The notes beneath the pieces were generated by a model. The model was not told the origin of the DNA. It ran no database searches and was given only the letters and a program-made list of their open reading frames with translations. 30,656 nucleotides of DNA from positions 1 through 30,656 of the forward strand of contig JAWAQK010000029.1 of the NCBI GenBank assembly GCA_038893995.1, in the 5' to 3' direction. A program made the translations under genes and the position numbers. The DNA comes from Candidatus Thorarchaeota archaeon. GTDB taxonomy: Archaea > Asgardarchaeota > Thorarchaeia > Thorarchaeales > Thorarchaeaceae. This document shows, in pieces, positions 22,495 through 29,749 of the stretch (the stretch's first letter is position 1; each line of letters opens with the position of its first letter).

Positions 22495-23454
22495 ATGGCA
22501 AAGTGTGCATTCTGTGACGCAGACTTCGAAACTGGTCCTGGTGATGTGTTGCTTGTCTGCCCCTACTGTGGAACCGCACAGACCTTTGAGGGTGCAAAGT
22601 TCACTAAGCACCACATGGTCCGCGTTCTCTTCTCAGCCTCTGATGCGCAGAGAAACCTACTGGACTGGATATCGAAACAGCTCGGGGTCCCGCAAGACCT
22701 CTCCACATCTGCTCACTTCACTAGGCAGGAACTCACGTTCTATCCATTCTGGGTGAGCAGCGTGGATGCGGACTCAACGTACTCAGGCCTAGGCAAGGAT
22801 GCCACCTTCCATGATCCATGGCCTCAGTATCCTGGTGCATACAAGTTCATCAAGTTCTTCTATAAGCCCGAGTCTGGTCGATTCACGAGGCGGTATGAGA
22901 TCTCGATCCCTGCCATCTCTGGCATGGATGAGAAACTGAAGAAGTTTCCAATTCCAACACGAGCCAAGGAGTTCTTCAGCCATGCGCACGCAGAGGAGCA
23001 CAATGGCAAGGTACTCCACAGCAAGATGGACGAGAAGACGGCGGTTGAGCAGGCCCGCAAGGAGGCCTACGACAGGCAGACCCAGCTGATAATGAGCGAG
23101 ATACAGAAGGTCGAGTCGAGAAACGACAACATCAATGTACGCGAGTCCTTCCTGATTCATGTGCCAGTATGGGAGCTGGAATACAGGTATGGTAGCAGAA
23201 AGTACTCCGCACTTGTGGCCGCGTCGAACGGCTATGTCATCAAGGCCAAGTATCCCCGTTCCAAGTCCTTCAGGGCTGCTGCACTGTGCTCGGGCACGTT
23301 GTTCACGCTCGCAGGTGCAGCTCTGCTCACGCTGGCGCTGGTCTTTGAGCGTCTAATCGGGGCCGGAATAGTCAGTGGTTCGATGTGTTTCGTGCTTGGC
23401 CTGATGATGCTCTACAAGGGCGTCTCCAGGAAGGAGGCTGCTGAGCAGATCTAG
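22495..23454 (+). CDS. Zinc-ribbon protein with two C-terminal TM helices (paralog 2)
   Basis: CAFC..CPYCG, LTFYPFW, HVPVWELEYRYG..Y..LVAASNG, two terminal TM segments; ATG directly follows the upstream TAG. Confidence 0.85.
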   Translation: MAKCAFCDADFETGPGDVLLVCPYCGTAQTFEGAKFTKHHMVRVLFSASDAQRNLLDWISKQLGVPQDLSTSAHFTRQELTFYPFWVSSVDADSTYSGLGKDATFHDPWPQYPGAYKFIKFFYKPESGRFTRRYEISIPAISGMDEKLKKFPIPTRAKEFFSHAHAEEHNGKVLHSKMDEKTAVEQARKEAYDRQTQLIMSEIQKVESRNDNINVRESFLIHVPVWELEYRYGSRKYSALVAASNGYVIKAKYPRSKSFRAAALCSGTLFTLAGAALLTLALVFERLIGAGIVSGSMCFVLGLMMLYKGVSRKEAAEQI

Positions 23455-26594: not shown

Positions 26595-27845
26595 ATGTTC
26601 GATTTTCTGAAGAAGGACCCTGTGGTCAAGGCTAAGAAGCACATTGACAGGGCCATGAAGGAGCTTCAGGACGGCTACCCTGACTATGCCTCCGAGGAGT
26701 ACGAGAAGGCCGCGGTTCTGTTTGTGACCGCCGAGGAGTCGGACTTTGCCATCAAGTACTTCCGAGAGGCTGCCAACTGTGCCCTTCAGAGAGATGATCA
26801 CGGTCGGGCTGCAGAGATGAAGAAGGCGGCAGCCGGTGTACTCATCTCAGAGTCCCGTTTTGAAGAGGCCGGTCTTCTCTACTCTGAGGCCTCAGATCAT
26901 TTCTATCGGGCACGTCAAGTGAGCGAGTCCGCCAGGGCCGCAGCAATTGCTGTCCTGAGTCTTCTGGCTGCGAGGAAGTTTGATGCCGCCCTGAACCTGT
27001 TTCACAAGGCCGAGAAGAGGTATGTTGGTTCAGACCGTGTCACCGAACGGATCTATGAGTTCAGCTCTCTCTGTGTGCAGATACTGTGTGAGGGCCAGGA
27101 GATTGGGATCAGTGAGTTCAACAAGGTCGCGAATGGGCTGAAGGGAAACGAGCAGGAGTCCCAGCTGTTCGAGTTCATTAGGAGGTCGGCCCAGCTCGCC
27201 CTCGAAACCCACATCCTGCTCGAGTGGGCAGGGCCGTCGCAGTCCATGGTCAGGGTCAAGTCTCCCGTTGAGTTTGAAGTACGTTACACTTGCCAGGTGC
27301 CTGTGCGAGTGTCCTCATACAAGTACTCGCTATCGTCCTCGCTCGTCATTGAGAGAGAGCCCAGGTTCGATAGAGAGCTACGGACACAGGACTCATGGCT
27401 CCTGAGAGTGCGGCCGGTCCTGAGCGGAGCAGCTCAGCTGGGCCCGTTCCGCTTCACTCTGGAGGGCGAAGAGGTACTCATCAACAAGCACACGAATGCC
27501 ATCACCTTCACTGTAGAGAGCGCGCCCCCATCTCTGGAGCTGGCGATATCTCCACCATCCCTCTTGTGTGACATTGGTGATGAGGTGGTGTTTGATGTCG
27601 TTGTGAAGAATCGTGGAGATGGACCCGCTGACAACTTCGAGATAGAGGTGTTGTTGTCACAGGGTCTGGAGATGACAGTGGGGTCAAGCCGTAGGAGCGT
27701 GCAGCATCTCGGAGTCGAGGAGAGCATTCGATTTCCAGTCTACGTACGTCCAACTTCCCGGGCCGGCGGGCTCGTCACAGTCCGTCTTCGCCTGGCGGGT
27801 CAGGACACGGAGATCACACGTACTGCCTCAGTGCGTTCTGGTTGA
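26595..27845 (+). CDS. SNAP/TPR-like alpha-solenoid fused to two Ig-like (CARDB/DUF11-like) domains
   Basis: Ala-rich helical repeats in the first ~200 aa (YASEEYEKAAVLF, RFEEAGLLYSEAS); beta-rich C-terminal half with GDEVVFDVVVKNRGDGPADN. Confidence 0.8.
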   Translation: MFDFLKKDPVVKAKKHIDRAMKELQDGYPDYASEEYEKAAVLFVTAEESDFAIKYFREAANCALQRDDHGRAAEMKKAAAGVLISESRFEEAGLLYSEASDHFYRARQVSESARAAAIAVLSLLAARKFDAALNLFHKAEKRYVGSDRVTERIYEFSSLCVQILCEGQEIGISEFNKVANGLKGNEQESQLFEFIRRSAQLALETHILLEWAGPSQSMVRVKSPVEFEVRYTCQVPVRVSSYKYSLSSSLVIEREPRFDRELRTQDSWLLRVRPVLSGAAQLGPFRFTLEGEEVLINKHTNAITFTVESAPPSLELAISPPSLLCDIGDEVVFDVVVKNRGDGPADNFEIEVLLSQGLEMTVGSSRRSVQHLGVEESIRFPVYVRPTSRAGGLVTVRLRLAGQDTEITRTASVRSG

Positions 27846-27865: not shown

Positions 27866-28366
27866 TCAGAGTAATCTTCGAAATGCATTCATGTCGGGTT
27901 CATCGAGCAGCAGGTACTCATCGCCTGTCCAGTGGAGGACCCTGTATTCCCTTGCGTGTCCGAGAATAGTCCCAATCATGAAGGCCTGCGCAGTTGGACA
28001 TGCAAATGCTATTGCGAGTGGCTTCCTGTCGATGTTCTTTGCAATATTCTCTATGACTGCTGCTGCCACCTCGGCCCATCTGGTCATCTCTCCTGGTGAG
28101 AGTTCCTTGGTCCGACCGATCTGAGCGATCACGTTGTAGCCCGTTAACTTGAGGTCTATTGTCGGATCTACGGAGGCGACAACCGCGACTGCTCTTGGCC
28201 TTCCGTCATCTGGTTCGTAGATGACTGGAACCTTGGTCCTCCCATTTATCCAGTCTGCTATTGACCGATATCTTGTGATCACGTTGACAAAGCTGGACAC
28301 GATGAGTGACGCTATTCCTACTTCCACAGTTGCTTCCCCGTCGAATATGTGAGTGTGCCCGATCAC
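27866..28366 (-). CDS. Stand-alone single-lobe SAVED-like protein A
   Basis: AVAVVASV..IAFACPTAQAFMIGTILG..RVLHW...Y matches the SAVED PxxxAFxxG..VxHY...Y signature; moderately hydrophobic N-terminal segment; start uncertain. Confidence 0.75.
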   Translation of the reverse strand: MIGHTHIFDGEATVEVGIASLIVSSFVNVITRYRSIADWINGRTKVPVIYEPDDGRPRAVAVVASVDPTIDLKLTGYNVIAQIGRTKELSPGEMTRWAEVAAAVIENIAKNIDRKPLAIAFACPTAQAFMIGTILGHAREYRVLHWTGDEYLLLDEPDMNAFRRLL

Positions 28367-28437
28367 TACGCGACAACACGTCCGTGCCCATGCCCGGGCC
28401 TACGGCGGTATCACCGTCCTGGGGGTGGCAGTCAGTA

Positions 28438-28449
28438 ACTCTTAAGAGT
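28438..28449. promoter_or_regulatory. Perfect 12-bp palindrome at the centre of the divergent SAVED intergenic region (bidirectional TATA-like box or operator)
   Basis: ACTCTTAAGAGT; the main AT-rich patch in a GC-rich spacer, about 70 bp from each candidate GTG start. Confidence 0.6.
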
Positions 28450-28534
28450 ATCGTGGAGGCAGTACCGTGACCTCCGGTGGGTTCTATAGGAGCTCTGCCG
28501 TCAAGCTCAAAGGAACGTGTTGAAGGGGCATAGA

Positions 28535-28999
28535 ATGTTCGGCTTGCAAGATCCAAGAGTCGTCAGAGATCGGGTGTCCGGCATTGATGTGACTGCCCAT
28601 CCCAAAGTGATCAGCTTCCTGACAACCGGTCGTATCGACGATGAGTTCATGAGAACGGTCCCAGGACCCATTGCAATCGGCGTCAGTCTGTCCCGTCCCA
28701 CGAGGGGCGACCTCGAGAATGAGGGATATTCAGTGCTCGCCGAGATAGGAAATCCACAGCAGATGAGTCCCGATGAATTTCCCTCGATCGCAACGAGGGT
28801 GGCTTCAATAATTCTCAAACTACTGAAGATTGTACGGAAGGATGCCTACATTGCCCTCTCATGTCCGAACGCCCTCGCCTTCATGATCGGATGCCTCATT
28901 GGCAGACGTCAACGAATCCATGTTCTCCACTACGAGGAGAATAGATACAGGCGTCTTCCTGATTTCAAACCCGAGAGGGTCAAGACACCAAAGACGTAG
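28535..28999 (+). CDS. Stand-alone single-lobe SAVED-like protein B
   Basis: IAIGVSLSRP..DL and AYIALSCPNALAFMIGCLIG..IHVLHYEENRY; paralog of 27866..28366; start is the ATG at 28535 (GAAGGGG upstream) or the GTG at 28517. Confidence 0.78.
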   Translation: MFGLQDPRVVRDRVSGIDVTAHPKVISFLTTGRIDDEFMRTVPGPIAIGVSLSRPTRGDLENEGYSVLAEIGNPQQMSPDEFPSIATRVASIILKLLKIVRKDAYIALSCPNALAFMIGCLIGRRQRIHVLHYEENRYRRLPDFKPERVKTPKT

Positions 29000-29002
29000 G
29001 TC

Positions 29003-29749
29003 CTACTGACTAGTGGATGTCAGAGGTTCAGACTCGATTGTCTCCTCGACGATACTCAGACAGGCATCCATCAGTTCCTGAATGGTCTCCTCCTGTTCGA
29101 ATCGACGAAGGAGTCTAGACGCGTCGCTCAGTCTGCGGTTGGCCAGAGCCTCAGCAAAGTCAAGGATCGTCCTGAGCCAGTCCCAGATTGTCCTGTCAAT
29201 GACCATCCTGGCCTTTGCGATCTTCTCCTGTGCCTCAGAGGTCCGGTTTATCGTCGCCAGACCCATCGCCGCCAGAGAGAGGTCCATCACGGCGCGTTCG
29301 GCCTTGGCCTCCCTGAATGCCTCCTCTGCAGCCTTACTGTAAAGATTCGCCATGTTCTCAGCACACGTCAGGAAATACTCCTTGTTGCCCAGTCTGTGAC
29401 AGGAGAACGCTGCCCAGAGATATGACTGTGCTGCCGTCTCAGTCTTTCCAACCTGGAGGGCCTGCTCAGCGGCGTTCTCGAACAGAGTGAGCGCAGTATC
29501 ATATTCGTCCATCTGCCTGTACTGGGTGGCCGCCTCGAAGTATGCAGTGGCAGCCATGTCGTGGTCATTGGCCTCTGAACTGACCTCAGCCTGAATATGA
29601 AAGTTCTCAGCAGCCTTCCTACTCATCTCGGCAGCGCGCTCAAGATAGCATGAGGCAGCCTGCCTGTATTGGTTGCCAGCCTGATAGAACCTGTCTCGTT
29701 CCTCGAGCTCTTTGGCCAGGTTCTCCCATTGACTACACTCTTCCTCCAT
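29003..29749 (-). CDS. Alpha-SNAP-like helical repeat protein
   Basis: QAGNQYRQAASCY, AAENF..QAE, AATAYFEAATQYRQMD..ALTLFENA and GKTETAA follow the recalled SNAP repeat pattern. Confidence 0.75.
   Translation of the reverse strand: MEEECSQWENLAKELEERDRFYQAGNQYRQAASCYLERAAEMSRKAAENFHIQAEVSSEANDHDMAATAYFEAATQYRQMDEYDTALTLFENAAEQALQVGKTETAAQSYLWAAFSCHRLGNKEYFLTCAENMANLYSKAAEEAFREAKAERAVMDLSLAAMGLATINRTSEAQEKIAKARMVIDRTIWDWLRTILDFAEALANRRLSDASRLLRRFEQEETIQELMDACLSIVEETIESEPLTSTSQ

Follow-up and report, generated by a model that had tools for sequence, protein, structure and literature searches.

SAVED domains are thought to derive from the duplication and fusion of a homodimer of single lobes, either CARF or Csx15. 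Single-lobe, stand-alone SAVED4 sequences are already catalogued as the PADLOC profile PDLC02008, 'SAVED4--SAVED', whose name goes back to the CARF/SAVED classification that Makarova and coworkers gave in 2020. Csx15 has been proposed as a SAVED predecessor, a single-lobe homodimer whose members act as sponges or ring nucleases (PMC13148439; bioRxiv 10.64898/2026.10.26.761840). Two such enzymes are present at only about 4% of ring-nuclease loci, Csx15 being the exception, and PfCsx15 offers a precedent for a sponge. The catalytic His is essential for cleavage in AcrIII-2 (H128A; PMC12751052) and CcaCalpL (H396A); CalpL H396A still binds cA4.

Here we analysed two genes, half-SAVED A and half-SAVED B, in a 30,656-nt stretch of DNA from a Candidatus Thorarchaeota archaeon (the window), which makes up the whole of contig C29 in a genome of 2.33 Mb and 91% completeness. 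Like AcrIII-2/Crn5 (PDB 9R8S; PMC12751052), A and B are of the SAVED4 type and have no recognised enzymatic effector domain, with the pocket His, a Ser, a basic tail helix and a type III context. However, AcrIII-2 is one two-lobed viral chain with an essential H128, whereas A and B come from two cellular genes that encode a single lobe apiece, without a counterpart of that His. With the SAVED4 protein CalpL (PDB 7QDA, 9EYI; PMC11417357; bioRxiv 10.1101/2024.05.08.593097) they share the lobe fold, the equivalents of H345/H474, S451 and R361/K364, and type III partners of the cA4 type; unlike CalpL, they have no Lon protease and their lobes are unlinked, and CalpT and CalpS were not found near A/B. 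The likeness to Csx15 lies in the single lobe, the place as a type III accessory, the location sometimes in trans, the co-occurrence with other ring nucleases and the tandem fusions. In contrast to Csx15, which is a one-gene homodimer with a catalytic or binding His near its N-terminus, A and B have diverged as paralogues, carry N-terminal extensions and score against SAVED4 models. A literature search, with subscription journals largely outside its coverage, returned no report of a two-gene heterodimeric SAVED, nor of paired, tandem or fused forms of the single-lobe SAVED4 sequences.

A divergent pair of paralogous genes

Half-SAVED A (27866..28327, minus strand) encodes 153 aa from a GTG start and comprises one SAVED4-type lobe. 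Half-SAVED B (28535..28999, plus strand) encodes 154 aa from an ATG start and comprises a SAVED C-lobe-like part with a linker strand. Longer frames begin at 28366 for A (27866-28366, minus strand; 166 aa) and at 28517 for B (28517-28999, plus strand; 160 aa), but the starts at 28327 and 28535 are preferred by homologues and database records (P0013 for A); residue numbers of B refer to the 160-aa form. Back-to-back promoters are presumed in the 207 bp between the two starts (28328..28534), where no conserved DNA motif was found among six loci and a promoter scan remained at chance level.

The two frames had been described as head-to-head paralogues with a single motif unit each, and both points held up. 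A and B share 38% identity across 107 aa (E 2e-19), their Smith-Waterman score of 159 is far above that of shuffled sequences (28 +/- 5; maximum 55 of 1000), and profile-profile comparison gave a probability of 100% and an E of 7e-43. One CP.A.AFMIG and one VLH[WY] occur in each chain. The DNA of the pair agrees with contigs of two sequencing runs, which may be the source samples, with no indel and no joint and with small gaps inside B; the same DNA as the window is present in contigs of hot-spring metagenomes. We rejected a hidden upstream effector or a frameshift, since the frames stay open for no more than 24 and 15 codons upstream of their start codons and the run contigs have no indel in the pair.

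Profile searches including PADLOC, Pfam and NCBIfam detected no nuclease, protease or TIR domain in A or B, in line with the preliminary description. For the pair as a whole, the absence of an effector part is not fully established, because A starts with a conserved hydrophobic segment (see below). The window was also said to be free of cas and CD-NTase genes. Among its 29 other ORFs that were scanned (all except ORF 22495-23454), no such family was found, and only two HTH models matched.

Each chain corresponds to one SAVED lobe

In PADLOC, A matched PDLC02011 (E 2.6e-6), which as SAVED4-TM is its top match, and PDLC02008 (E 1.4e-3), while B matched PDLC02008, the 104-position model of stand-alone SAVED4, with an E of 8e-11. 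Against Pfam PF18145 (cut-off 26.2 bits) the two chains reach only 15.8 and 12.9 bits, and against NCBIfam NF033611 (cut-off 33) only 19.5 and 27, as expected of half-length chains that are unable to fill these models. Tandem homologues exceed the Pfam cut-off for SAVED (29.4 and 26.6 bits). Among proteins of solved structure, AcrIII-2 (9R8S) and CalpL come nearest in sequence, and B matches their two lobes in turn.

The AlphaFold model of B (pLDDT 85.8) superimposes on residues 104-235 of 9R8S (Z 10.8, rmsd 2.8, 118 aligned residues) and on residues 368-496 of CalpL (Z 9.6), in both cases on the C-lobe only. SAVED proteins occupy the first 13 places among the structural matches of B (Z 7.0-10.8), compared with 5.8 for the best CARF, and Foldseek is concordant. 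No Csx15 entry stands among the listed structural matches of B, in a library that may not contain Csx15, and a viral fold library gave no match at E below 0.001. In the ESM Atlas, the models of both chains resemble SAVED clusters, the match of A beginning at about residue 30-42. Two lobes in one polypeptide were found only in the fused homologue P0006, whose fold prediction from the single sequence reached an uninformative pLDDT of 34, and not in A or B. These comparisons, from its own model for B and from the Atlas model for A, agree with the earlier proposal that each chain is one SAVED lobe, with CARF the weaker match for B.

Single lobes were also encountered elsewhere. A lone 125-aa gene of single-lobe SAVED-like type lies at L038:8001-8378 and L067:773-1150 (P0019 and P0038), surrounded by small unknown genes, an AAA ATPase and phage-family matches, and one member is labelled Bathyarchaeota; we regard it as a putative homodimeric anti-CRISPR protein or sponge carried by a mobile element of archaea. 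In the ESM Atlas, several bacterial clusters of 125-207 aa have SAVED matches (among them one of 182 aa with 928 members and an EAD7-SAVED of 207 aa), which suggests either that single-lobe SAVED proteins are more widespread or that these clusters are fragments.

A and B are predicted to form a heterodimer

The model of the A+B complex scored 0.91, against 0.00 for the best control, on a test whose mark is passed by 58/80 solved pairs and 2/110 mismatched pairs; the pass may reflect likeness to solved SAVED domains. The runs share at least 88% of contacts, the pLDDT of the partners is at least 83, and the closest contacts join A115-122 to B121-126, equivalent helices that correspond to the inter-lobe helix of SAVED.

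Gene content and gene order point in the same direction. A family match was found in 6/87 genomes of the class Thorarchaeia, each of which has exactly two, and in no genome searched was A or B found alone; extending the search to 400 genomes of the phylum gave one further match, which was single, weak and outside the family. The divergent arrangement recurs at six loci besides the window (in G009, G013, G014 and G074 and at two further loci), A precedes B in tandem with a 14-bp gap in GCA_027101075.1, and the two are fused, A first, in P0006 of G005. A chains and B chains fall into separate tree groups (100/99). The earlier proposal of an A+B heterodimer is thus favoured by the complex model, the co-occurrence, the separate clades and the tandem and fused forms, and the survey of related genomes found the pair divergent, tandem or fused. 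A search for longer proteins returned only Lon-SAVED-sized ones, a weak result, as P0006 itself was missed. Pattern scans across genome, metagenome and viral contigs gave no match.

A and B have almost the same interface helix, and homodimers may therefore be formed just as readily. It could be asked whether each chain makes a Csx15-like homodimer of its own, with a ligand or role different from that of the other, the two being housed in one cassette with no obligatory pairing. Divergent genes need not yield equal amounts of product, single-lobe relatives are found alone (P0019), and a pass in the complex test is also possible for near relatives of genuine partners. However, neither gene was found by itself in any genome searched, tandem and fused forms exist, and the pairwise identities of A and B correlate (r 0.72, for which shared descent alone could suffice). 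We regard separate homodimers as quite improbable.

The pair is an insertion in the window genome

The genes on either side of the pair are core genes outside the module: an SNAP/TPR-like and Ig-like gene of 416 aa (26595..27845, plus strand) marks the left border and an SNAP/TPR-like gene of 248 aa (29003..29749, minus strand) the right. In 18/18 family relatives searched, these two genes are directly convergent with no pair between them, so that A/B form a 1.15-kb insertion. The GC3 values of A and B are 0.55 and 0.59, and those of the flanks are higher, at 0.66. Terminal repeats or a target duplication around the insertion were not found beyond chance. A mirror-symmetric module of four genes (SNAP-like, A, B, SNAP-like) was rejected on the same convergence, and further because the two SNAP-like genes are barely alike and flank no other A/B pair.

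CRISPR elements of the window genome (G000) lie largely on other contigs. The window itself contains a single 37-nt CRISPR repeat at 2-38, at the contig edge; the same repeat family occurs on five other contigs, and the array probably continues past the contig break. The assembly holds three CRISPR repeat families in all. A complete type III-C operon (G000:C3 24853-31860; L024:4854-11861) encodes Cmr1, Cmr6, a Cas10c without GGDD, Cmr4, Cmr5 and Cmr3. The tail of another type III operon (G000:C44 18378-20523; L023:15379-17524), comprising a pair of Csm3-like genes and one gene for a small helical protein, runs off the contig end.

A Csa3-like CARF-HTH gene is coupled to a gene for a 596-aa protein at the end of a type I-D-like locus (G000:C41 9794-12123; L051:6795-9124). 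The 596-aa protein has no PADLOC match and its homologues adjoin type III loci in G005 and G014; the two genes are possibly an undescribed CRISPR regulator pair.

No GGDD-bearing Cas10 and no match to Csx1 or CARF-PIN was found in the window-genome assembly, and SMODS, the CD-NTase family searched, likewise had no match in this 91%-complete genome, with positive controls. With the III-C Cas10, which is cyclase-dead, as the one assembled, and with the motif loop of window A the most worn of the family, the pair might be an orphan left after loss of the type III cyclase, or might serve a messenger outside defence. We consider this very improbable. Both frames are intact and a Csa3-like CARF regulator is present. 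In addition, the C44 remnant is homologous to the tail of the G001 operon, which has an HD+GGDD Cas10, so the cyclase of the window genome may simply be unassembled; a GGDD cyclase may thus be present, as judged from the contig break.

The family accompanies type III CRISPR in relatives

RAMP genes were found in 14/87 genomes of the class, including 6/6 carriers of the family, which belong to six genera; the hypergeometric value of 6e-6 is overstated, as related genomes are not independent. The pair or fusion lies inside a cas10 locus or within about 12 kb of one in G074, G005 and G009 and at L020 and L041, and on a cas-free stretch in G014 as in the window genome; the contigs of G013, L019 and L044 are too short to judge proximity. 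Every carrier relative (G005, G009, G013, G014, G074, L020 and L041) has a GGDD-bearing Cas10. All six carriers thus possess type III genes, and the co-occurrence with cas10 that had been proposed as a check was observed. In contrast, the suggestion of a housekeeping second-messenger receptor was not supported: the family tracks type III CRISPR, the pair is an insertion in the window genome, and 81/87 genomes of the class lack the family by search. As for CBASS, no CD-NTase was found among the scanned ORFs of the window and none was noticed at the related loci.

Where neighbours are visible in the loci of relatives, they include Csx1, Can2-like and CARF-PIN proteins, which points to cA4 as the ligand. 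Csx20 is already encoded at L041.

Two further features of these loci were recorded. Csx1 homologues of Thorarchaeia carry an extra C-terminal CARF (CARF-HEPN-CARF) at L017:14309-16009, L020:3757-5484, L045:1812-3653 and L049:2926-4671, possibly a built-in ring nuclease. At L041:244-2008, two neighbouring ORFs of 289 and 300 aa together make up a type III-B Cas10; this is seen in two assemblies, which may come from the same sample.

Conserved pocket residues without the catalytic histidine

The pocket His is kept in both chains (A H132 and B H138, equivalent to CalpL H345/H474), and B S115 corresponds to CalpL S451 and AcrIII-2 S194. The basic C-terminal helix, with R150 and R151 in A and R154 and K156 in B, equals that carrying CalpL R361/K364 and AcrIII-2 R96/K99. 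In profile alignments, K99 is matched by R150 of A and K156 of B, and an Arg sits one residue off R96 in B and in most A homologues; window A is without this first tail-helix Arg near R96. From the conserved pocket and tail residues, A/B are predicted to bind a cyclic oligonucleotide and to stack head to tail.

The loop of the catalytic His reads S52-V53-D54 in A and S59-R60-P61 in B, at the position where CalpL has its catalytic Ser-His. In no register do A and B contain the His of the first strand-helix loop (H392/H396/H128/Csx15 H8), which is missing from 15/17 family lobes; the Arg of this loop is invariant in B chains. Ser-His-Asp is retained in 2/9 A homologues, so some family members may be catalytic.

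These residues bear on whether the heterodimer could be a stand-alone ring nuclease of the AcrIII-2/Crn5 or Csx15 kind, with a composite site in which the invariant Arg of B and the conserved Ser would replace the His. AcrIII-2 is the nearest match in both sequence and structure; the pair has kept S115, the basic tail helix and, in the Ser-His loop, the Ser; two A homologues keep Ser-His-Asp; and neighbouring cA4 effectors need switching off. Against this, both window chains lack the His known to be essential, as do most lobes of the family, Csx20 co-occurs at L041, and Csx1 at four loci bears the extra C-terminal CARF, possibly itself a ring nuclease. A ring nuclease therefore appears unlikely.

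It seems to us a better reading, held tentatively and at somewhat short of even confidence, that A and B are unlinked SAVED4 lobes serving as a type III accessory, and that their heterodimer binds cA4 and acts mainly as a sponge or threshold buffer. In such a scheme, A and B would be the two separate lobes of one cyclic-oligoadenylate-binding unit of the CalpL/AcrIII-2 type, and would be joined, as modelled, by the helix that follows the CP motif, giving a pseudo-symmetric heterodimer. This heterodimer would bind cA4 made by Cas10, probably stack head to tail on it by analogy with CalpL, AcrIII-2 and Csx15, and, in the absence of the catalytic His, may hold the signal more than cut it. In the window genome the cassette, being far from cas genes, would act in trans. 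The lost His, the Csx20 at L041 and the rarity of two ring nucleases at one locus favour a sponge over a ring nuclease. His loss alone is not the mark of a sponge, since PfCsx15 acts as one and keeps its His. Of the three roles first suggested for the pair, the sponge therefore fares best, the ring nuclease is doubtful given the absent His, and the housekeeping receptor is disfavoured.

A hydrophobic N-terminus on A

The sponge model does not explain the N-terminus of A. Residues 1-17 (28277..28327, minus strand) form a hydrophobic or amphipathic segment that is followed by basic residues and is absent from B. It is hydrophobic in 9/9 A homologues, with a best 17-residue Kyte-Doolittle mean of 1.1-2.0 (1.8 in window A) and a net charge of 0 or -1 before it and +1 to +4 after it. 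The segment is not among the A:B interface contacts, lies mostly outside the lobe match and is retained in the G005 fusion.

This arrangement recalls TM-SAVED (Cap14, SAVED4-TM), Cam1 and Csx23, in which an N-terminal hydrophobic segment precedes a cyclic-nucleotide sensor, and to which a membrane effector gated by cyclic oligoadenylate could be likened. In it, B and the lobe of A would sense cA4 and the resulting filament would cluster the N-terminal helix of A in the membrane. It would be a two-subunit effector of Asgard type III systems on an independently evolved heterodimeric SAVED. The conserved segment of all A chains and the basic residues after it, its position outside the predicted interface and its survival in the fusion are consistent with this, as are SAVED4-TM as the best PADLOC match of A and the presence of a dedicated ring nuclease at L041. 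However, in contrast to those proteins, A/B have one marginal helix on one subunit and show no alignment to known TM segments. The segment is less hydrophobic than the genuine TM helix of P0017 (2.3-2.5) and does not exceed the buried core helix in this respect, and the A profile aligns with the 2TM-SAVED P0017 over only the C-terminal 44 columns of the lobe. Such an effector is thus improbable, though to be kept in mind beside the sponge or threshold buffer.

Origin of the pair

Scores between the two groups are 79-116 bits for B chains against the A profile and 98-125 bits for A chains against the B profile, whereas either profile scores 5-49 bits against CalpL-type lobes, with no steady preference of A for the N-lobe or B for the C-lobe. 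A and B are thus far closer to each other than to the lobes of CalpL, which argues for their own lineage-specific duplication of a single lobe and against fission of a CalpL-type SAVED, a candidate we rejected on these scores. Judged from the profiles, the pair need not be a relic of the origin of SAVED. The inner branches of the tree, on which the order of the divergent, tandem and fused states depends, are weak, and the fusion may be derived or ancestral.

The Csx15 model NF040560 had no match at E up to 1 among 10 proteins compared with NCBIfam, and a genome search for Csx15 had none either, with positive controls that also failed to match. The preliminary description had called the pair an unfused intermediate between CARF dimers and SAVED. 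The unfused single lobes are indeed there; the intermediate position is weakened by the duplication of their own and by Csx15, which already fills that role.

Implications

The A/B family displays a state that was missing, in which diverged single lobes sit on separate genes beside tandem and fused versions, and it opens the rise of asymmetry to direct tests with mixed natural subunits, such as which lobe keeps the His and which ligand is selected. To Asgard type III CRISPR the family adds an unannotated accessory missed by standard SAVED models. The missing catalytic His and the co-occurrence with Csx20 point to a role different from simple signal decay. To this, the window locus contributes a clean insertion site, a His-less pair without an assembled cyclase, and the hydrophobic N-terminus of A as a testable alternative. 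If the membrane-effector reading were true, one lineage would record the passage from a single lobe through a divergent pair and an operon to a fusion.
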